Origin: Mustelus asterias | Lineage: Eukaryota | DNA: 64,000 bases | Direction: 5' to 3' | Assembly (NCBI RefSeq): GCF_964213995.1 | Contig: NW_027591667.1 | Coordinates: 1-64,000, forward strand | In this document: positions 1,930-55,828 of the stretch, in pieces | How positions within the stretch are numbered: position 1 is the stretch's first letter | Layout: every line of letters begins with the position of its first letter | The notes under the pieces: model-generated | Told to the model about the DNA's origin: nothing | Databases searched by the model: none | The model's input: the letters and a program-made list of their open reading frames with translations, nothing else | Translations under genes and position numbers: made by a program

Positions 1930-3407
1930 CTCTTCTCAACTTTGTGGTCCTCTTTCCTCGCTTATCGGAATGTTTCAGTGACCAAATATTCAATCCCCAA
2001 ATTTTTGGCGAGTTTCTTGTTACTCCTCGTGCTCACTTGAATGCCAAAAGCAAAAACTTGATGCAATCTAATTTCTGTAGCTAACTGTTCAAGTTTCATG
2101 TTCAAGGCGGGATAATAAAAGAGAATCCCTCCCATGTGTTTTGAAGTACAGATTCTGCAGCTTGAAACAAGAGAGCTTTCCGAATTAAAATTTAGGAATT
2201 TTAGTTGAATATTTCTGAAATATTAGCAACAATTTATAGAGGGAGCGAGAGCATCCCAAAGGGCGTCACGAGGCATATTCAAAATTATACACTGCGGCTA
2301 AAAAGGAGATATTGGGGTAACCAAAAGTAGTGATTCAAGGATGATCTGAAATGACTGGGGTGGGGGGTGGTGGAGGTATTCAGAAAGGGATTGCCAGAAT
2401 TGGTGCATAAAAGCATGAACCATAGGTGGGGAAAAGGAAAGAGAGATACACAAAGTTGGAGTCAGAATAATGGAGCATTCAGAATGGTGGGATAAGACTA
2501 TGAATGGTTTGAAATGCTCAAACCCATTTTAATGATTCTTAATGAGTCTTGTTATCTAATTGTCATGGTGGTAATAAAGTCCCCAATAAATTTCAGTGCA
2601 CATTTTAAAATTTGAAGGACAGGTTACTTTTTCCCTACATTACCTATTGTTTGAGTACAGCAATAGATAGGACATACTACAATGTTAGCCAAATAATAGT
2701 AAAGCTAATTAAGGCTTCAGAAGTGACCTTAAAATTTCTCTTATGGTTAACAAGGTCTTCTTCACAAATGAGCTCGTCAATAAATGTAATTAAGGACTTT
2801 TAGCACAATGTTTAAGGTCATTTTTAAAAAATCACAGCCTATTAATGATCATTGACCAAACAATTCATCAGGGAAGCAATATTTTTCAAGCCCACTCGAC
2901 CATGATAATTAATCATCCTCCACAGAATATGCTACAATCGGCTTCCACAGGAAATGGTCTCTGGCAAAGTAATTGGCATTGATTTTCCAGCCCACGTCCC
3001 AGGCAGGAGGCACTTCTGCACTTGGAGTGGAAGCAAATTTCTGGGTTGGTTTTGTTATCACAATGGCAATAAGCAGCTGATATGAACAACAGCTGCAGCC
3101 CAGCTGTTGTGTAGTGAGGTGAGAGATCCAATGCTGCTGCAGAATGTATAGATTGGCAATTAAAGGGAGGGGCAGATAAGCAATTTGAAAGGAGTCATGA
3201 GATTTGGGAAGACAATTGCTGTTCACCATGATCTGCAAACTGGATATTTGAACATATGCTGAGAAAGAAAAAAATTGCATTTCCAACCTTAAGTTTTCCA
3301 ATGAAGTAAATGATTCTGCAATGTAAACCTAGGATTCCAAAAGGATTGATTAAATTAGAGGGTTAAGCTGTTATACTATTTTTCTTGGCAAGAAAACCAT
3401 TTCAGGA

Positions 3408-4370: not shown

Positions 4371-4818
4371 ATAAGGACTCCTCCCACTGTGGGGGTGATT
4401 CCCTACTCTGAGTCCTAATTGTCCCCGAGGTCAGGTGAACTTAATCTGCTGTGTTGCCACGAGAGGGGCAATCACCACAGGTGACCACTACGAGGCCTTC
4501 CCCTCCGCCCTGGCACATTCCTGATGCATCCTGACCACTATCTCAGTGGCTACCATCAGGATTCTCAAACAGGATTAGAGAGCTCAAAATCTTGCATGAT
4601 CCCACCATGCAAGGAAATGGAGGAAACAGCTGTCCCAGTGGGGGGGTGGGGAGGGGGGGGGGGGGTAGAAAATTGACACACTGTTCAATTTTTACTGTAA
4701 TTCTGTCTGATTGTGACTAATCATGATGTGGAGATGCCGGCGTTGGACTGGAGTAAACACAGTAAGAAGTCTCACAACACCAGTTTAAAGTCCAACAGGT
4801 GTATTTGGTAGCAAAAGC

Positions 4819-4853
4819 CACTAGCTTTCGGAGCACTGCCCCTTCGTCAGGTG
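4819..4853 (-). ncRNA. Minimal type I hammerhead ribozyme motif (PLE)
   Basis: Minus strand reads cac-CTGACGA-aggggcagtgctcc-GAAA-gcta-gtg. Confidence 0.8.
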
Positions 4854-6140
4854 AGTGGGAGTTCTGTTCACAAACAGGGCATATAAAGACACAAACTCAA
4901 TTTACAAAATAATGATTGAAATGCGAGTCTTTACGGGTAATCAAGTCTTAAAGGTACAGACAATGTGAGTGGAGAGAGCATTAAGCACAGGTTAAAGAGA
5001 TGTGTATTGTCTCCAGCTAGGACAGTTAGTGAGATTTTGCAAGTCCAGGCAAGTCGTGGGAGTTACAGATGGTGCGACATGAACCCAAGATCCTGGTTGA
5101 GGCCGTCCTCATGTGTGCGGAACTTGGCTATCAGTCTCTGCTCAGCGACTCTGCACTGTCGTGTGTCATGAAGGCCGCCTTGGAGAACGCTTACCCAAAG
5201 ATCAGAGGCCGAATGCCCGTGACCGCTGAAGTGTTCCCCAACAGGAAGAGAACACCCTTGCCTGGTGATTGTCGAGTGTACCACGGTGGACAGAGTACCC
5301 TTCGTCGTCCAGTACTTCCCCGGAGCAGAGAAGCTACGACATCTTCTCCGGAGCCTTCAACATGTCATTGATGAAGACAAGCATCTCGCGAAGGCCATCC
5401 CCTCACTCCCACTTCTTGCCTTCAAACAACCGCACAACCTCAAACAGACCATTGTCCGCAGCAAACTACCCAGCCTTCAGGAGAACAGTGGCCACGACAC
5501 CACACAACCCTGCTACAGCAACCTCTGCAAGACATGCCGGATCATCGACACGGATGCCATCATCTCACGTGAGAACACCATCCACCAGGTACACGGTACA
5601 TAATCTTGCAACTCGGCCAATGTTGTCTACCTGATACGCTGCAGGAAAGGATGTCCCGAGGCATGGTACATTGGGGAGACCATGCAGACGCTACGACTAT
5701 GGATGAATGAACACCGCTCGACAATCACCAGGCAAGAGTGTTCTCTTCCTGTTGGGGAGCACTTCAGCGGTCACGGGCATTCGGCCTCTGATCTTCGGGT
5801 GAGCGTTCTGCAAGGCGGCCTTCATGACACACGACAGCGCAGATTCGCTGAGCAGAGACTGATAGCCAAGTTCCGCACACAGGAGGATGGCCTCAACCGG
5901 GATCTTGGGTTCATGTCACACTATCTGTAACCCCCACGACTTGCCTGGGCTTGCAAAATCTCACTAGCTGTCCTGTCTGGAGACAATACACATCTCTTTA
6001 ACCTGTGCTTAACGCTCTCTCCACTCACATTGTCTGTACCTTTAAGACTTGATTACCCTGTAAAGACTCGCATTCCAATCATTATTTTGTAAATTGAGTT
6101 TGTGTCTCTATGTGCCCTGTTTGTGAATAGAACTCCCACT

Positions 6141-6175
6141 CACCTGACGAAGGAGCAGCGCTCCGAAAGCTAGTG
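6141..6175 (+). ncRNA. Minimal type I hammerhead ribozyme motif (PLE)
   Basis: cac-CTGACGA-a-ggagc-agc-gctcc-GAAA-gcta-gtg: catalytic core, stem II, reduced palindromic stem III, cac/gtg stem I. Confidence 0.85.
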
Positions 6176-6499
6176 GCTTTTACTACCAAATAAACCTGTT
6201 TGACTTTAACCTGGTATTGTGAGACTTCTTACTCTGATTGTGACTAGAACAGAGATCAAAACTGAACCCTGATTCTTTGTCTAACTGAAATCATTGTCTT
6301 CAAATATTAAGGATTGGCACCGCTGTTGTCGGACAGGCACAGTTGATTCTTTCACATGTTGGGAGTGGGTAAGTGGAAACAATAAGGCTGATTCTTCTTC
6401 CCTTAATCCAATTACTTACAGATAATCAAAGTGTTACCCAAGCATAGCCCCATATAAGCACTCTTTAGGGGAGGCTGTGACCACGTGTTATTGCACGGG

Positions 6500-9831: not shown

Positions 9832-10890
9832 ATTTTTTTTTCTAAAAATACACCTCATTCATAAAATTTGTAAAAATACATTACATAACAGTTCAAATTT
9901 CACATGAAATAAAAGTGAGATGGAGATCAGATTTTGCAATACAGTACATGAGATGTTGCGCTTTGTCATTACAGGTTATGTATACAATATACATTTACAG
10001 TTCATGACAAGCATTCTCTGATGCATACGGTCTGTGTAGTTTTACACAGTTTCTAGCTCCTTGGTATACTTTGGCAAGAGGACTTTAAGCAATGGTCTTT
10101 CCCTATTGAGTCCCCCTCCGGCAACTTCCCCAAGCTTGCATGCATCCCTCAGCATGTAGTCCTGCACCTTGGAATATGCCAGCCTGCAACACTCAGTAAT
10201 TGACAGCTCTTTGCATTGGAAGACCAGCTAGGCAGACCCAAAAAAGCATCCAAGATGAAGGTTCTCTGGCAGCAGTTGATGTTTATTTCAGTATTTGTCC
10301 CTGAAAACAGCCCAAAGAGCACTGAGTCCCATATTATAGAACAGATCCATTGTCAAAAAACACTGTATCTCTTTCCAGGCCCACTTTGAAAAGGAACATT
10401 CCATAAGAAGGCAGGCGGTAGTCTCTTGCCCACTATAGCCCTTCGAGAGTGCAGAACTAGTGAGACTCTGGGCTTACCAGAAGGATCTGATAGGGAGAGC
10501 CCTTCTCAACACCAACCAAGTCCTGGATATTGTTTAAAAGTTCTGATGATGTGATGGTGTACTCATGAACCATCCAACAGAATATAACGCTTCCTTTTTC
10601 TTTAGGGCCTCGAGGGTGTTACATGCAGACCACTGCCTGTTGGAATTGCTGTAAGTAGTGATTTTCTGCACCATCTTTTCCAACATCCAACTGAATGCGG
10701 CATTCTGCGACAGTGCGGCCCATCCCATCCTTCGCAACAATGGGGAAGAAGATAGAAGCTCAACATGGAGTGACACTTGGTGTTTGCATAACCAGAATCT
10801 ATTCAGAGCCTGATGCAGCCACGCAAAAAGATGGCCATCAGATGAAGGCGACACCTGGTATGTTTCTTTTTCCCCCTTTATCCAGAGGTT
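9832..10890 (-). mobile_element. Tx1-clade LINE 3' fragment
   Basis: Poly(A) tail (T-run at 9833-9841); translations SPLLRRMG...RQWSACNTLEAL and LVFQCKELSITECCRLAYSKVQDYMLRDA, typical of Tx1 ORF2 C-terminus. Confidence 0.8.
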
Positions 10891-12480: not shown

Positions 12481-13605
12481 TTTTAATACTTTTTGAAGTC
12501 GAGCCATCTTATTTTGTCGGCAAAGGTAACAGCTTTGAACTTGTCATGGGAATTGCTGGCGTATGGGCTGAAGGTGGTGAAGAACCATCCCTGGCCACAC
12601 AAAGCCCAGGAGATTTTAACAGTCGAGCTTCGTTTTCTATCCTTTTGCGGGCGGGTGGAATTTGTGACTGCCAGAGTCTGACAGCCCACCATTGGAGGGG
12701 AATATGGTATTGGAAAATCCATGATTGGAGGGCGATGGGGTGAAGCGCAGGGCAGGGGAGGCCCAAGATTTAATTAAAAAAACATTAAACCATGGGCCTG
12801 CATCATCACTGATGGGTTTGAGACCATTCCAAATTAGTTGGGCCCACAGTTTAAATGGTATGCAGGTCCCACTGATGTAATTGAGCTATGGCTTTACCAC
12901 TGAAATTAAGCCTGCACTCTTCTCTGGAGAATGGTCTTCCTGTGTGTAAACATGTGCAAATTAGCATAATTTGACAGAGATATTCAAAACCATGAGGGTC
13001 TGGATAGTGTACATCGGCAGACCTGTTCCAACTAACGAAAGTATTGAGAGCCATCATCCTTTTTCTTGCCTCTGTAATTGTTGGAAACCAGTTACAACGC
13101 TTACCTATTTTTAGTTTTGAATTAATGTCAGTGGCAGAATCCACAAACCTTCAGAGTTTTCCCCACATTTTCTGTTTATTTTTAGTTCTGATTCCAGTAG
13201 GTCTGTATCAGCAGTTCAGCAATTCTAAAGACTTTTGAAAAAAAAAAAAATGTTTTCATGCATTTTGCGCTAAGGAAATTGAGAGTGATACCGGGGAATT
13301 AAATACATTTCCAGTTTTACTATGCAGTGTCAGCATCAGTTCCTCTGAATTCAAATGCAGCATAAAGCATTCTTCAGACTGCTTCAAGGTCTTAGGAGTA
13401 CACACTGGTTACACTAGCTCCAGCACCAAAAACTCTTGTAATTGCTGAGTGAGACTGCCAATTTAATCTGTCAAATTGTGGGCAGTTTTGTGCTTTAAAA
13501 CATCCCAAGCAGCTTGAGACATTTAACGGCATTAACATAGCTAAATAAATGCAAAGTTGTTGTTGTCGAGCTACATTTTGGGACTATCCAATCTCTGATG
13601 ACTGG

Positions 13606-20783: not shown

Positions 20784-21201
20784 CTGATTTTCCTTTCATT
20801 ATTATCTGGAGAACTGCCTTTGTGCAACATGACCATAAAGCTTGCCGTGAGGTGCAGTGGGCGGCACGGTAGCACAGTGGTTAGCACTGCTGCTTCACAG
20901 CTCCAGGGTCCCGGGTTCGATTCCCAGCTCGGGTCACTGTCTGTGTGGAGTTTGCACATTCTCCTCGTGTCTGCGTGGGTTTCCTCCGGGTGCTCCGGTT
21001 TCCTCCCACAGTCCCACAGTCCAAAGATGTGCAGGTTAGGTTGATTGGCCATGCTAAAATTGCCCTTACTGTCCTGGGATGCGTAGGTTAGAGGGATTAG
21101 TGGGTAAATATGTAGGGATATGGGGGTAGGGCCTGGGTGGGTTTGTGGTCGGTGCAGACTCGATGGGCCGAATGGCCTCTTTCTGTACTGTAGGGTTTCT
21201 A
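20784..21201 (+). mobile_element. HE1 V-SINE with 75-nt 5' leader
   Basis: Head starts at 20859; tail gggccgaatggcctc...ctgtagggtttcta; leader identical to 53661-53735. Confidence 0.9.
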
Positions 21202-22415
21202 AGCTCAGGAATAGAAAGAATTTAATCACAATGTTGCGGGTTTATTATAGGCCTCCCAAGAGCCAGCTGGAGGGACAGATATGTAGACAGACTTTGGCAA
21301 GGTGTAAAAGTAGCAGGGTTGTTGTGGGAGATTTTAACTTCCCCTATATTGACTGGGACTCACTTAGTGCTAGGAGCATGAATGGGGCAGAGTTTGCAAG
21401 GAGCATCCAGGATGGCTTCTTGAAGCAGTATGCAAATAGTCCAACTGGGGAAGGGGCCATACTGGACCTGGTATTGGGGAATGAGCCCGGCCAGGTGGTC
21501 GACGTTTCAGTAGGGGAGCAGTTTGGGAACGGGGACCACAATTCAGTAAGCTTTAATGTACTGATGGATAAAGATAAATGTAGTCCTCAAGTTAAGGTGC
21601 TAAATTGGGGGAAGGCTAATTACCACAATATTAGGCAGGAACTGAAGAATGTAGATTGGGGGCAGATGTTTGAGGGCAAGTCAACATCTGGCATGTGGGA
21701 GGTTTTCAAGTGTAAGTTGATAGGGATTCAGGACCAACACATTCCTGTAAGGATGAAGGATAAATATGGCATGTATCAGGAACCTTGGATAACGAAAGAT
21801 ATTGTGAGCCTAGTCAAAGAGAAAAAGGAAACATTTGTCAAGGTTAGGAGGCTTGGAACACACAAAGCCAGTGTGGAATACAAGGAAAGTAGAAAGAAAC
21901 TTAAGCAAGGAGCAAGGAGGGCTAAAAGAGACCACGAAAAGTCATTGGGCAGCAGGATTAAGGAAATTCCCAAGGCTTTTTATACATGTATAAAGAGCAA
22001 GAGGGTAGCCAGGGAGAGGGTTGGCCCACTCAAGGACAGGGGAGAGAACCAATGCGTGGAGCCAGAGGAAATGGGTGAGGTATTAAATGAATACTTTGTG
22101 TCAGCATTCAACAAAGAGAAGGACTTGGTGGATGATGAGTCTGGGGAAGGGTGTGTAGATAGTTTGGGTCATGTTGAGATCAAAAAGGCAGTGGTATTGG
22201 GGGTCTTGAGAAACATTAAGGTAGCCAAGTCCCCAGGGTCTGATGGGATATACCCCAGAATACTGAGAGAGGCAATGGAGGAAATTTCTTGCGTCTTGAG
22301 ATAAATCTTTGTATCCTCACTGGCTACAGGGGAGGTCCCAGAGGATTGGAGAATAGCCAGTGTTGTTCCTTTGTTTAAGAAGGATAGCAAGGATAATCCA
22401 GGTAATTACAGGCCA
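21202..22415 (+). mobile_element. CR1 ORF2 internal fragment (APE endonuclease and linker)
   Basis: VYYRPP, VVGDFNFP, ILDLVL, GDHN, KSPGSDGIYPRIL, NPGNYRP. Confidence 0.92.
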
Positions 22416-31003: not shown

Positions 31004-31194
31004 CTGCAGCTTTACCAGGATTGGTACCTCATTTGTGGGTGTGCCTGGAGCTGCTCTGGACATTCACTGGACCATGTTTGGTCCCTCAGCTTGACTGTAG
31101 TGGGAGAGTGAAGGATATGCAGGTATGAGGTTACAGATTGTGGCTGAACACAATTCTACTGCTGCAGTTGGTTTACAGAATTCATAAATGCCCA

Positions 31195-31522
31195 GCCTTT
31201 TGGCTAAGATCAAGTGTATGGACGGCAGCCCATGGTCGGCCGCACTTGGTCGAGGTCATTAGGTTACGCTGAGGCCTCATATGTTTCATATGAAGCAATT
31301 TTTAAAAGCGGCATCTCGGCCTTTTGGCTAAGATGCAAATGAGCTCAAGTCTTGGAGGAGGATCCTCCCCCTTCTCCAATCAGCTTGGCTCATGTAGATC
31401 AGGCCCAGGACAGGGTGGTTTGGTCGCTCGCTCTGTCTTGGCAGCCTGGATCTGAAATGTCTCGACTTGTTGAGACTCTGAATTGGATTTGATTTGATTG
31501 AATTGGAAAAGTATTAAAAAAA
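31195..31522 (+). mobile_element. U2 snRNA-headed SINE-like element, copy 1
   Basis: gccttttggctaagatcaagtgta equals U2 nt 12-35; second U2 module at 31311-31350; A-tail; TSD atgcccag at 31188-31195 and 31525-31532. Confidence 0.88.
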
Positions 31523-31651
31523 TGATGCCCAGTTAGTTAGTTAGTTGTTCAATCCATTATGAATCATTCCGTTTAGCACAGTTGTATAGCCACAAATATG
31601 AAAGGGGATATGATCAGTGTGAAATGGGACTTTGGTTTCACAAGGACTATG

Positions 31652-40159: not shown

Positions 40160-41330
40160 GAACTTGCTTTTTTTTTATCAGCTGTGGCGTAGAGTGTAAG
40201 AGCAAGGAGATAATGTTGGGGCTGTACAGAGCATTGGTTAGGCCACAGCTGGAGTATTGTGTGCAGTTCTGATCACCTTACTATAGGAAGGATGTGATTG
40301 CACTGGAGGGGATACAGAGGAGATTCACCAGGATGTTGACTGGGATGAAGCATTTGAGCTATAAGGGGAGACTGGATAGGCTTGGATTGTTTTCGCTCAA
40401 GCAGGGGAAGCCAAGGAGGGATATGATGGAGTTCAATCCAGATAAACGCAAAGTGATGCATTTTGGTAGAACTAACGTAGGGGGGGAGCTATACGATAAA
40501 TGGCAGAACCATAAAGGGTGTAGATACGCAGAGGGACCTGGGTGTGCAAGTCCACAGATCCTTGAAGGTGACGTCACAAGTGGAGAAGGTAGTGAATAAG
40601 GCATATGGCATGCTTGCCTTTTGAGGACGGGGCATAGAGTATAAAAGTTGGGGTCTGATGTTGCAGATGTATAGAACGTTGGTTCGGCCGCATTTGGAAT
40701 ACTGCGCCCAGTTCTGGTCGCCACACTACCGGAAGGACGTGGAGGCTTTAGAGAGAGTACAGAGGAGGTTTACCAGGATGTTGCCTGGTATGGAAGGGCT
40801 TAGTTATGAGGAGAGATTGGGTAAACTGGGGTTGTTCTCCCTGGAAAGATGGAGGATGAGGGGTGACCTAATAGAGGTGTATAAAATTATGAAAGGCATA
40901 GATAGGGTGAACGGTGGGAAGTTTTTTCCCAGATCGGTGGTGACGTTCATGAGGGGTCATAGGTTCAAGTTGAATGGGGGGAGGTTTAACACGGATATCA
41001 GAAGGATGTATTTTACACAGAAGGTGGTGGGGGCCTGGAATGCGCTGCCGGGCAAGGTGCTGGAGGCGGACACACTGGGAACGTTTAAGACTTATCTAGA
41101 TAGCCACATGAACGGAGTGGGAATGGAGGGATACAAAAGTTTGGACCAGGGAGCAGCGTGGGCTTGGAGGGCCGAAGGGCCTGTTCCTGTGCTGTATTGT
41201 TCTTTGTTCTTTGATTGAGGTGTATGGGATTATGAAGGGTTTGGGCAGGGTGAATGGGAAACAGCTGTTCCCCTTGGTTGAGGAGTCAATCACGAGGGGA
41301 CATAGTTTTAGGGTAAGGGTCTGGAGATTA
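40160..41330 (+). mobile_element. Older CR1 with nested young CR1 (about 40425-41212)
   Basis: ORF 40658-41218; the host resumes at ttgattgaggtgtat after the tail. Confidence 0.9.
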
Positions 41331-41823: not shown

Positions 41824-42145
41824 TTTTCTTTTTAATATACTTTTCCAATTCAATCAAATCAAGTCCGAATCATAGTCTCAACAAGTTGAAACATTTCCGA
41901 TCCAGGCTGACAAGACAGGGCATGCAAGCCTCTACCCTGTCTTGGGCCTGATCTACATGAGCCAAGCTGATTGGAGGAGGCGCAGGTCTTCTTCCTCCAA
42001 AGCTTGATCTCATTTGCATCTCAGTCAAAAGGCCGAGATGCCGCTTTTAAAAATTGCTTCATATGAAACATATGAAGCTTAAATGCAACCCAATGGCCAC
42101 TACCAAGTGCAGCATCGGCATAACCACACCTGATCTTAGCCAAAA
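41824..42145 (-). mobile_element. U2 snRNA-headed SINE-like element, copy 2
   Basis: Minus strand ttttggctaagatcaggtgt...gcatctcggccttttgactgagATGCAAATgagatcaag...aattggaaaagtatattaaaaagaaaa; colinear with 31195-31522. Confidence 0.88.
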
Positions 42146-42673
42146 AATGCTTATGGCACTGTATCCACAACTTCACCATCTCACGCCTGCTACTGACTTC
42201 TTCTGTCACCGATACCCACTTCATCTTTGTTATGGCAACTGGCTTCATCTTGCCAATTATATGAAATCGCAACCCATTCCCTGGCCCTCTTCCCACCACC
42301 ATCTCTGCCGCCCCACTTCCACCCACCCACTCCCTGGTCCTTACAGCATCCGGCTGAAGTTCTTCCCAAGTTGCACTGGGCCTTAAGTAGGTGACTGGGA
42401 ATGACATCATTTGGGTGAGCATTGTGCTGACTGATACATGACATGGAGCTCAGAATCAAATTTCAAATGAAGACAGGTACTCTGTCACCTGCTATCACTT
42501 TGCATTTGCACTTGCAAGAATGAGGACTTTGAAATTTGACTTAATACTGGTTTTCTTATTGTTGAGGAAATAAGCATTCAACATGGAAGTGTCATTCAGC
42601 GGATGAAATAATAAACTACAATTAACAAAGTAAAGATTAATTAAGTCACAGCCACCTAAAAATACCATATTAA

Positions 42674-43092
42674 TAAGAACAAAGAACAAAGTACAATACA
42701 GCACAGGAACAGGCCCTTCGGCCCTCCAAGCCCATGCCGCTCCCTGGTCCAAACTAGACCATTCTTTTGTATCCCTCCATTCCCACTCCGTTCATATGGC
42801 TGTCTAGATAAGTCTTAAACGTTCCCAGTGTGTCCGCCTCCACCACCTTGCCTGGCAGCGCATTCCAGGCCCCCACCACCCTCTGTGTAAAATATGTCCT
42901 TCTGATATCTGTGTTAAACCTCCCCCCCTTCACCTTGAACCTATGACCCCTCGTGAACGTCACCACCGACCTGGGGAAAAGCTTCCCACCGTTCACCCTA
43001 TCTATGCCTTTCATAATTTTATACACCTCTATTAAATCTCCCCTCATCCTCCGTCTTTCCAGGGAGAACAACCCCAGTTTACCCAATCTCTC
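42674..43092 (-). mobile_element. CR1 3' end, young
   Basis: ORF 42754-43137; near-identical to about 40810-41212. Confidence 0.93.
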
Positions 43093-44117
43093 TGTCTGTA
43101 ATTGTCCAATGATTTTGATAGAAGTCCTTTGATACATAAGTGCACTGATTTCACTTGAATTACTACAAGATCAAGACCATAGGTACATTTCTCACTCCTT
43201 TTAAGAATACTTTGCAACTTAAATTAAATACTTAAAATGTTGGACTTTATCAGGAATAACAAGATGCTGTGCAATAGGCGACATACACCATTTTAGTCAT
43301 GAAATTTGCTTATTATTTCCTTCAGCTAAATATTTTCATGCATTAGTTGGTTGCTTCTATGTGATGACCTATGAGTGCATAACTGTAATGGTTTGTACAT
43401 TCCTGTTCTAAGTCTCCAGGCAAACCTTGGCTTGTGGTCAGCTTCTAGAAATCGAATGCAGAACTTAATTAAAATTTTGCTGGAGTTTGAAGGAACCATT
43501 GACCCAATACTGGGAAAAATGCCAAATAAACAAAGAATAATGTTAAGGAAACCATATGCTATTTTATAATTAGCTGACTATATACGCTTGATGCTATCAT
43601 TGTAATCATTGATTAGTCAGTTACCCTACTGGTTGCTGTGTTAAGTGCTTATTGATATCAATGCTCTGAATAATGTGATTTGCTCTACAACATACTGCAG
43701 TTGCACTTTTTTTCAGGTTCCATCTCTTGTTATCCTACCATCTGCAGCTGAGGAAAACAATGAGTAGACCTGCAAACTCCTCCTCAGTCCTGGTTTCAGA
43801 TCGAGACCATAAACCCGGTGAAAAGTTTTCAAAGTTGGATATAAGCTTACGCTATTTTTTTTTCCAATTGAGAATCTTTGCCTCTGCCAAGATTAAACTA
43901 ATGAGGAGTTATTTTTAAACATTGTGGAATTAAGACTTTTTCGCAGTTATGGTACATTTGCTTGCCAGCCATGTGCGCAATGTATTTTAATGCTCGTCAG
44001 TTCTGTTCAGTGAATTAATGAATCGACTACAGCAATTTGGAGATCATTGGGAAGATCAGTCTCCAGGCATCACACAGAAATTACTGACAGATCACTTCGA
44101 GGCACTCACAGGCACTT

Positions 44118-46731
44118 CGAGGGGGATCTGCACACTGAGGTAATATGGGCTGAGGTTAGAAATAGGAAAGGAGCGGTCACGTTGTTAGGAGTTTACTATA
44201 GGCCCCCAAATAGTAATAGAGATGTGGAGGAAGAAATTGCTAAGCAGATTATGGATATGTGTTGGGGTCACAGGGTAGTTGTCATGGGGGACTTTAACTT
44301 TCCAAATATTGATTGGAACCTTTGTAGGTCAAATAGTTCGGATGGGGCAGTTTTTGTGCAGTGTGTGCAGGAGGGTTTCCTGACACAATATCTGGATAGG
44401 CCGACAAGAGGTGAGGCCACATTGGATTTGGTACTGGGAAATGAACCAGGCCAAGTGTTAGATTTGGTTATGGGAGAGCACTTTGGAGATAGTGACCACA
44501 ATTCGGTGTCTTTTGTTATTGCAATGGAGAGGGATAGGGCCGTATGGCAGGGCAAGGTTTACAATTGGGGGAGAGGTAATTATGATGCGATTAGGCAAGA
44601 ATTAGGGGGCATAAGTTGGGAACAGAAACTGTCAGGGAAAGGCACTAATGAAAAGTGGAATTTTTTCAAGGAACAAATACTGGGTGTCCTTGATGGGTAT
44701 GTCCCTGTCAGGCAGGGAGGAAATGGCCGAGAGAGGGAACCATGGTTCACGAAAGAGGTGGAATGTCTTGTGAAAAGGAAGAGGGAAGCTTATGTAGGGA
44801 TGAGGAAACAAGGTTCAGATGGCTCGATTGAGGGTTACAAGTTAGCAAGGAACGAGCTGAAAAAGGGGCTTAGGAGAGCTAGGAGGGGACGTGAGAAGTC
44901 CTTAGCGGGTCGGATCAAGGAAAACCCAAAGGCTTTTTACTCGTATGTGAGGAATAAAAGAATTACCAGGGTGAGGTTAGGGCCGGTCAAGGACAGTAGT
45001 GGGAACTTGTGTATGGAGTCAGTAGAGATAGGCAAGGTGATGAATGAATACTTTTCTTCAGTGTTCACCAAGGAGAGGGGCCATGTTTTTGAGGAAGAGA
45101 AGGTGTTACAGGCTAATAGGCTGGAGGAAATAGATGTTCGGAGGGAGGATGTCCTGGCAGTTTTGAATAAACTGAAGGTCGATAAGTCCCCTGGGCCTGA
45201 TGAAATATATCCTAGGATTCTTTGGGAGGCAAGGGATGAGATTGCAGAGTCTTTGGCTTTGATCTTTGGGTCCTCACTGTCCACGGGGATGGTGCCAGAG
45301 GACTGGAGAATGGCGAATGTTGTTCCTCTGTTTCAGAAAGGGAATAGAAATGACCCTGGTAATTATAGACCGGTTAGTCTTACTTCGGTGGTTGGTAAAT
45401 TGATGGAAAAGATCCTTAGGGATGGGATTTACGACCATTGAGAAAGATGCGGATTAATCCGGGATAGTCAGCACGGATTCGTGAAGGGCAAGTCGTGCCT
45501 CACAAATTTGATAGAATTTTTTGAGGAGGTAACTAAGTGTGTTGATGAAGGTAGGGCAGTTGATGTCATATACATGGATTTTAGTAAGGTGTTTGATAAG
45601 GTCCCCCATGGTCGGCTTATGATGAAAGTGAGGAGGTGTGGGATAGAGGGAAGTTTGGCCGATTTGGCTGTCTGATCGAAGACAGAGGGTGGTGGTGGAT
45701 GGAAAATGTTCGGATTGGAGGCAGGTTGCTAGCGGAGTGCCACAGGGATCAGTGCTTGGTCCTCTGCTCTTTGTGATTTTTATTAATGACTGAGAGGAGG
45801 GGGCTGAAGGGTGGATCAGTAAATTTGCTGATGACACCAAGATTGGTGGAGTAGTGGATGAGGTGGAGGGCTGTTGTAGCCTGCAAAGAGACATAGATAG
45901 GATGCAAAGCTGGGTTGAAAAATGGCAAATGGAGTTTAACCCTGATAAATGTGAGGTGATTCATTTTGGTAGGACAAATTTAAATGTGGATTACAGGGTC
46001 AAAGGTAGAGTTCTGAAGACTGTGGAGGAACAGAGAGATCTTGGGGTCCATATCCACAGATCTCTAAAGGTTGCCACTCAAGTGGATAGAGCTGTGAAGA
46101 AGGCCTATAGTGTGTTAGCTTTTATTAACAGGGGGTTGGAGTTTAAGGGCTGTGGGGTTATGCTGCAACTGTACAGGACCTTGGTGAGACCACATTTGGA
46201 ATATTGTGTGCAGTTCTGGTCACCTCACTATAAGAAGGATGTGGAAGCGCTGGAAAGAGTGCAGAAGAGATTTACCAGGATGCTGCCTGGTTTGGAGGGT
46301 AGGTCTTATGAGGAAAGGTTGAGGGAGCTAGGGCTATTCTCTCTGGAGCGGAGGAGGCTGAGGGGAGACTTGATAGAGGTTTATAAAATGATGAAGAGGA
46401 TAGATAGAGTGAGCGTTCAAAGACTATTTCCTCGGGTGGATGGAGCTATTACAAGGGGGCATAACAATAGGGTTCGTGGTGGGAGATATAGGAAGGATAT
46501 CAGAGGTAGGTTCTTTACGCAGAGAGTGGTTGGGGTGTGGAATGGACTGCCTGCAGTGATAGTGGAGTCAGACACCTTAGGAACATTTAAGCGGTTATTA
46601 GAAAAGCACATGGAGCACACCAGGATGATAGGGAGTGGGATAGCTTGATCTTGGTTTCAGATAAAGCTCGGCACAACATCGTGGGCCGAAGGGCCTGTTC
46701 TGTGCTGTACTGTTCTATGTTCTATGTTCTA
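44118..46731 (+). mobile_element. Long CR1/HER1 LINE: endonuclease, RT and 3' UTR, few lesions
   Basis: ORFs 44047-45441, 45481-45675 and 45854-46648 with GDFNFP, SDHN, GNYRPVSLTS, YMDFSK.FD, KFADD, RPHLEY; stops and frameshifts between them. Confidence 0.97.
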
Positions 46732-55707: not shown

Positions 55708-55828
55708 GATGTGGAGATGCCGGCGTTGGACTCATCACTCACCTGATGAAGGAGCAGCGCTCCGAAAGCTCATGAGACCAAATAAACCTGTTAAACTTTA
55801 ACCTGGTGTTCTGCGACTTCTTACTGTG
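55708..55828 (+). mobile_element. Mini PLE insertion with hammerhead (55740-55774)
   Basis: Inverted tail plus cacCTGATGAaggagcagcgctccGAAAgctc; TSD aacat(g/a)tactttt at 55695-55707 and 55829-55841. Confidence 0.88.

Follow-up and report, generated by a model that had tools for sequence, protein, structure and literature searches.

Short retroposons headed by U2 snRNA sequence have been defined in crocodilians as the SINEU families, and the sections of Kojima 2015 (PMC4494074) that deal with them report none outside these hosts and leave their transcription open. U2 genes are also the target of LINEs: Keno, a member of the Tx1 clade, is described as U2-specific (PMC4494074; PMC4640811), and an insertion site after which U2 resumes at nt 39 is given as common to Keno and Utopia in the relevant part of one of these sources (PMC4640811). 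As for RNA editing of repeats, the pertinent passages report DNA traces without an A>G excess (PMC2873906) and L1 RNA that is unedited (PMC5224506), and in its section on the subject a 2016 review treats as undetermined what ADAR editing contributes to the evolution of Alu subfamilies (PMC4982230). The literature covered here, which takes in few subscription papers, contains no report of ADAR-type clusters in genomic SINE copies; nor, with Repbase and Dfam lying outside that coverage, does it contain a U2-headed SINE of cartilaginous fishes, although one may be catalogued there.

The stretch of DNA analysed, referred to as the window, comprises 64,000 nt from the cartilaginous fish Mustelus asterias (contig NW_027591667.1, positions 1 to 64,000) and holds two copies of an element of about 335 nt that is SINE-like in having a U2 snRNA head, an A-tail and target site duplications (TSDs). 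As judged from its sequence, the element is a retroposon that is non-autonomous and consists for the most part of U2 snRNA pieces in rearranged order. It is probably transcribed from a U2 promoter, copied by a Keno-like LINE and selected for its hairpins, with a minority of its RNAs edited by ADAR before reinsertion. The two copies, and the parts of copy B, are as follows; the letters (a) to (d) mark hairpins that had been proposed in a first-pass annotation.

31188..31195, plus strand: 5′ copy of the 8-bp TSD of copy A, the 3′ copy starting at 31525
31196..31522, plus strand: copy A, U2-derived SINE-like element of the youngest subfamily
41824..42145, minus strand: copy B, U2-derived SINE-like element of the '41k-type' subfamily
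42124..42145, minus strand: U2 snRNA head, U2 nt ~15-36 with A30G and A35G relative to the U2 genes of L092 and L107
42094..42142, minus strand: H1, in predicted folds, in which the head pairs back onto an inverted U2-like stretch (the next 35 nt)
42056..42078, minus strand: H2, identical with hairpin (a)
42016..42041, minus strand: H3, an internal second U2 head with extended stem-loop I
41957..42013, minus strand: H4, which includes hairpin (b), itself at 41971-42000
41899..41953, minus strand: H5, which includes hairpin (c), itself at 41904-41949
41875..41892, minus strand: H6, identical with hairpin (d)
41824..41853, minus strand: 3′ end and A-rich tail

Copies A and B are 82% identical over 327 columns, and no ORF of 150 aa overlaps either of them. 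Copy B is truncated at its 5′ end at about U2 nt 15 and has no TSD. Positions 41825-42156 are missing from a contig of organism C (run X8), which carries 14 other letters instead and is likely to represent the empty site of copy B with a small target deletion. Family pieces were also present in sequencing runs of several other organisms; three of four runs that were guessed to be RNA contained them, which has no bearing on transcription. Copy B is flanked at 1.6 kb by two inverted CR1-like 3′ fragments (40811-41149 and 42754-43092) that are 94% complementary, and a second long inverted pair lies at 4755-5276 and 5717-6239. The ORFs at 21120-22304 (plus strand, 394 aa) and 44047-45441 (plus strand, 464 aa) lie in purine-skewed stretches and are probably LINE-derived.

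The copy number of the element is in the thousands. DNA searches of the 3.68-Gb genome of the species returned 2,135 to 3,389 candidate copies, and the assembly (G000) holds 6,044 exact 3′ motifs and 4,614 exact head motifs, the latter count taking in U2 genes, LINE heads and a sister family, F2. Sixty evenly spaced 10-kb stretches (600 kb) contained two copies of the element and one of F2. Full-length copies start at U2 nt 1, have a head of U2 nt 1 to ~38 and end in an A-rich tail, and TSDs of 8-23 bp flank 49 of 101 head-bearing copies. The consensus sequences measure 303-330 nt before the tail, with three or four internal runs of at least four T in each, a feature that speaks against transcription by RNA polymerase III. 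From 171 extracted copies 147 non-duplicate ones were retained, and these include three large subfamilies (35, 33 and 29 copies) with 98.0, 96.1 and 96.3% identity to their consensus, that of copy A standing at 98%. The subfamilies have their internal rearrangement in common, and descend from master elements rather than representing independent chimeras.

The path from U2 snRNA to the element is indicated by F2, an older second U2-derived family of about 225 nt that was found by pattern search (L175:1492-1712; L202-L231). F2 consists of U2 nt 1-33, short duplications and then degenerate U2 up to about nt 180, with mutations in the branch-point region and the Sm site. It aligns with nt 40-181 of U2 from the same genome with a score of 351, with the 3′ third of the element with scores of 284-287 and with H4 of the old subfamily with a score of 182, and in each case none of 500 dinucleotide shuffles scored as high. 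A direct alignment of U2 with the old consensus is also significant (0/500 shuffles). Direct alignments with the two window copies are weak (z 1.8-1.9), so that it is F2 that links these copies to U2 and carries the case for homology.

Following these alignments, H6 is a derivative of U2 stem-loop IIb, and H4 and H5 are two copies of a remodelled module of U2 nt ~24-62, the 3′ arm of H5 being derived from U2 39-62; the similarity between H4 and H5 themselves has z values of 3.6-9.3. Comparison with U2 identifies H3 as a second U2 head, and the 3′ arm of H1 resembles reversed U2 (3/500 shuffles as high). For H2 no similarity to U2 was found by alignment. An Sm motif is present in the U2 gene and absent from all six consensuses. 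At the level of alignment, then, a U2 origin is shown for the head, H3 and the 3′ half, the last corresponding to U2 nt ~24-100, together with a loss of the Sm site. The earlier proposal of an uncatalogued RNA does not stand if it is meant as an RNA of unknown origin, since F2 connects the 3′ half with U2 snRNA. The series U2, F2, element presents a housekeeping RNA that has been refolded step by step.

A search based on zf-RVT identified a LINE with a zinc-knuckle ORF1 and a 1,144-aa APE-RT-zf-RVT ORF2. The LINE sits in U2 genes at L091, L092 and L107, with U2 resuming at nt 39, and dispersed copies, many of them outside U2 genes, carry a U2 head. Among the 30 LINE loci returned, nine of which are one tandem array, seven contain the SINE, often directly behind the LINE tail, against a background of two SINE copies per 600 kb in the evenly spaced stretches. 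It is likely, given the common U2 site and this co-location, that a Keno-like Tx1 LINE mobilises the SINE. At one locus, L092, the SINE itself is inserted in a U2 gene: the sequence that precedes it is the one found upstream of the intact U2 gene nearby, and U2 resumes after its tail. This arrangement makes it likely that RNA polymerase II transcribes the element, starting from a U2 promoter.

The tails of SINE and LINE are weakly alike (for the three subfamilies, 10, 41 and 49 of 500 shuffles reach the same score), and the target motif after the tail is loose, with ATCT at 13 of 153 SINE and 8 of 33 LINE junctions. The SINE was also considered as an internally deleted LINE, an idea that was rejected on the grounds that the likeness of the LINE 5′ UTR to the element body is not significant and that of the 3′ UTR is weak. 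The 3′ arm of H1 recreates the U2 target site on the opposite strand, and at five junctions (L006, L053, L072, L099 and L191) the H1 loop has received an inverted SINE or LINE tail. Keno-like LINEs have inserted into U2 gene arrays, which are of two sequence types, at L091, L092 and L093 (G000:C21, ~28.04-28.08 Mb) and at L107 (G000:C24, ~44.8-44.9 Mb); on C24 a unit of LINE and U2 recurs about every 8 kb, and on C21 a TTGGA-type satellite adjoins LINE 5′ ends. A possible secondary target (55738-55828) is represented at L033, L047, L295, L316 and other loci.

The four hairpins (a) to (d) of the first-pass annotation are present in both window copies, hairpin (a) forming a perfect 10-bp stem in copy B and carrying one C·A mismatch in copy A, at 31274-31296. 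Two further helices, H1 and H3, had been missed. The two copies fold beyond chance, with z scores of -5.06 and -6.45 and none of 100 dinucleotide shuffles folding as well, and the consensuses of the three large subfamilies have z scores of -6.0, -7.3 and -10.3. H2 comprises 6 bp in the older subfamily and is lengthened by a 9-nt insertion in the younger ones. The stem differences reported between the two copies are indeed there, although several of them are private decay and not inherited change: the mismatch in (a) is found in one of the 76 copies having that column, the changes in (d) in 2/138 and 1/81 copies and a T>G in (c) in 2/138. The loops of (b), which had been called unrelated, are alignable between the copies.

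Inherited and private changes were separated with the help of a tree that comprises 138 of the 147 copies, the former being those on branches with at least five descendants and the latter the terminal changes, which represent decay after insertion. With the structure of the old subfamily, 39 inherited changes fall in stems and 118 in unpaired positions, compared with 527 and 364 private ones (p 1e-15), and structures derived independently from two younger subfamilies give the same avoidance of stems (p 2e-5 and 0.002), all of these figures being inflated by loop misalignment and by the use of consensus-derived structures. The stem-biased conservation seen between the two window copies thus holds across the family. 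Inherited changes also keep base pairs more often than private ones, with 22 kept and 7 broken against 196 and 282 in the old-subfamily structure (p 3e-4), or 14 and 7 against 120 and 282 when A>G and CpG changes are left out (p 0.001). The two younger-subfamily structures give p 0.015 and 0.056, the second of these, with the structure of the youngest subfamily, being not significant, as is the value without A>G and CpG changes (0.11).

Significant covariation within the family, a further expectation of a selected fold in the earlier account, was not found: one of 63 pairs changed on both sides, and 439 of 500 shuffles gave as high a count. This sole pair reads A-U, G-U and G-C across subfamilies in a set of 20 chosen copies, and 10 of 500 shuffles attained the observed covariation score, a result that relatedness alone can give. 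RNAalifold worked with the 20 chosen copies; its result for the 138 decayed copies, with only 11 pairs, was dropped. Deeper comparisons, made directly on the sequences, do reveal compensation, in a small number of events. Between H4 and H5 four of the six middle pairs differ on both sides, all of them Watson-Crick; H3 has three substitutions relative to U2, each of which turns a mismatch into a Watson-Crick pair; and one pair of H6 is C-G in U2, U-G in F2 and U-A in the element. The proposal that source elements were selected for an RNA fold is accordingly sustained in part: inherited changes spare stems and mostly keep pairs, and neither covariation nor a catalytic RNA accompanies this.

The hairpins could in principle have arisen without selection for RNA function, as a by-product of fold-back template switching, in reverse transcription or replication, that perfects inverted repeats and purges mismatches from master copies. 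Such switching would account for the 3′ arm of H1 as an inverted copy of U2, for the insertion that lengthens H2, which is itself palindromic, and for the near absence of stepwise covariation, and a single switching event could produce all four double changes between H4 and H5. It is, however, an unlikely explanation, in that internal loops and G-U pairs have not been perfected but are retained by every subfamily, private changes lack such a bias, and one pair reads A-U, G-U, G-C across subfamilies and another, from U2 via F2, C-G, U-G, U-A. Selection on the fold of master copies is the preferred reading.

A second characteristic of the family is an excess of A>G changes in its genomic copies. 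Private A>G changes number 167 at 10,461 sites against 140 T>C at 13,152 (p 4e-4), and in the 137 copies that were not chosen by an edited pattern the figures are 118/8,917 and 91/11,217. On the sense strand the head motif with AA>GG occurs 51 times, or in about 1% of heads, and the TT>CC control once. The T5/A4 linker offers the same context on both strands, and there 18 instances of the sense pattern stand against none of the mirror pattern. Full copies were recovered at 26 of 30 loci selected by the head; leaving aside the sites used for selection, they have 221 A>G and 22 T>C. For loci selected at a 3′ site the number is again 26 of 30, three identical duplicates among them, with 307 A>G and 19 T>C. 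A single copy may contain up to 33 A>G changes, and the edited 3′ doublet is found at 37 places against 6,044 unedited ones. The clusters follow element sense on both assembly strands (27/24, 21/16 and 11/7), their patterns vary between copies and subfamilies, and the flanking repeats of 76 A>G-rich loci are unbiased (p 0.26). The A>G clusters are sense-only and confined to the element.

No A>G excess was found in a control of 102 tRNA-SINE copies (p 0.43) or in five LINE tiles, one of which has a T>C excess (p 0.002). A set of 16 CR1 ends gave p 0.045, driven by one fragment at L295. This CR1 3′ fragment (L295:930-1220) has seven A>G and no T>C changes, on the strand that is also affected in an A>G-rich SINE close by, and lies outside the TSD of that SINE. 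The F2 member L176 is also A>G-rich. Adjacent or duplicated copies with the same A>G pattern occur at L185 and L186 (G000:C7, ~73.26 Mb) and at L319-L321 (G000:C71), and may stem from duplication, either tandem or segmental, or from an edited copy having transposed again.

The clusters are best explained as element RNA that was edited by ADAR and then reverse transcribed into the genome, which is likely to be their origin. Being strand-specific, they suggest that the element RNA is double-stranded in cells. The rate of change is highest for an A preceded by U (0.45-0.49) and lowest for one preceded by G (0.11-0.14). Predicted stems and loops are edited to an equal degree (24% vs 24%; 25% vs 28%), so the editing calls for more than the local hairpins, and a longer duplex is indicated, for example one formed by an inverted pair. 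Inverted neighbours, which are present within 1.5 kb at 6 of 84 ordinary loci, could supply it. Misincorporation by the reverse transcriptase, a process acting on the locus or an assembly artefact would be more in keeping with the missing stem preference and with the edited-looking CR1 fragment in L295. These origins are nevertheless very unlikely when set against clusters that follow element sense on either assembly strand with no mirror pattern, unbiased flanks, LINE bodies that show no excess when copied by what is likely the same reverse transcriptase, a depletion after G that fits the ADAR signature as given in the relevant passage of PMC2873906, and the TSDs retained by several edited copies. 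ADAR editing of the element RNA is the explanation adopted here.

Two extensions of the editing account were tried and rejected. One holds that subfamilies change through editing. The branch totals lend this no support, inherited changes comprising 14 A>G and 13 T>C; on two branches there are A>G pairs and nothing else, and sites polymorphic for A and G coincide with editing hot spots (rho 0.47, 73 sites), a correlation that is partly circular because A>G was disregarded in the choice of references. The other, that reverse transcription requires 3′ hairpins free of editing, came from head-selected copies, in which the 80 nt preceding the tail motif show no edited A among 189, and it fell when copies selected by the 3′ doublet proved to be edited throughout. 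Recognition of 3′ hairpins by the reverse transcriptase, one of the functions suggested earlier for the fold, is likewise not supported, as copies edited in their 3′ part were still inserted.

The body of the element has no family in Rfam and the window no match at gathering score, and to this extent it is uncatalogued, although it is still U2-derived. Matches up to E 10 in the window number five and are at chance level. Other SINE and F2 copies give partial matches to RF00004 of 24-47 bits, driven by the head, compared with 170-190 bits for genes. A catalytic structure, also among the earlier suggestions, was not found, there being no Rfam ribozyme family and no hammerhead core in the sequence. 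That the body is an independent functional RNA carried along by the element, a self-cleaving ribozyme or new RNP scaffold, is highly unlikely, for although very strong folding, a body without an Rfam family and an H2 without a traced origin speak in its favour, most helices trace to U2, the hammerhead core is missing, the fold is a chain of simple hairpins whose loops change freely, and copies beginning at U2 nt 1 are what a U2 promoter would give without any cleavage.

For the U2-derived retroposon proposed here, insertion of the element into a U2 gene would place master copies under a U2 promoter, from which RNA polymerase II would transcribe them. The Keno-like Tx1 LINE would copy the element RNA into the genome, selection would keep the chain of predicted hairpins in the master copies, and a minority of the RNAs would be hyper-edited by ADAR and then reinserted. 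Among the most speculative steps, the hairpins may stabilise a polymerase II RNA that has no Sm site. In the same vein, H1 would cover the branch-point recognition region, and the hairpins may hide the splicing-active 5′ sequences of U2, namely the branch-point recognition region and the U6-pairing region. A bolder version, possible and distinctly tentative, is that a cartilaginous-fish spliceosomal RNA has turned parasite: U2 derivatives without an Sm site, transcribed from the U2 promoter and copied by the LINE that targets U2, would have been selected for a fold that conceals the splicing-active 5′ end, with inverted insertions of their own making feeding ADAR, edited RNAs returning to the germline genome and some of these founding subfamilies. 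If that version is true, the genome holds a dated archive of germline A-to-I editing.

The proposed element would extend U2-headed SINEs beyond crocodilians and name a candidate partner LINE for one of them, and the copy in a U2 gene behind the promoter region would give a concrete answer to how such elements are transcribed. The A>G-rich genomic copies would be a read-out of germline editing from DNA only, and with dozens of ADAR-type copies the role of editing in SINE evolution, as against its role in curbing transposition, becomes testable.

The element is SINEU-like in class; membership of SINEU-1, -2 or -3 is not claimed. In the sections of PMC4494074 that describe them, SINEU families share with the element a U2-derived head, a length below 500 bp, an A-tail, repeated U2-derived segments, internal oligo-T, TSDs or target truncation, tandem insertion and a probable partner of the Tx1 clade, and F2 resembles SINEU-3 as there described in being an altered, nearly whole U2. 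The host is a crocodilian for SINEU and a cartilaginous fish for the element, and SINEU targets Mariner-N4_AMi whereas the candidate partner of the element targets U2 itself. Unlike SINEU as presented in those sections, which describe neither conserved hairpins nor A>G-rich copies, the element has one copy behind a U2 promoter region and a 3′ half that is traceable to U2.

Keno, so far as the cited descriptions extend, is matched by the LINE of this genome in its APE and RT domains in ORF2, its zf-RVT and the resumption of U2 at nt 39, and the SINE at L092 uses the same U2 site. Unlike the U2-specific Keno, the partner LINE has many copies outside U2 genes, with a U2 head; and the SINE is non-coding and not an internal deletion of this partner LINE. 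U2 snRNA itself (RF00004) is the source of the head, H3, H4/H5 and H6, from which the element differs in having no Sm site, a replaced stem IIa and duplicated segments. In contrast to U2 retropseudogenes, thousands of copies of the element have one rearranged structure and fall into subfamilies. With hyper-edited RNA of inverted Alu repeats, as treated in the passages on editing in PMC2873906, the element has clustered A>G changes and their depletion after G in common, and with APOBEC-edited retroelements, for which the marks are G>A in the part of PMC4866542 concerned, it shares editing marks that are fixed in genomic copies. Unlike those of ADAR-edited RNA, the A>G changes described here lie on the sense strand of SINE copies in the genome.
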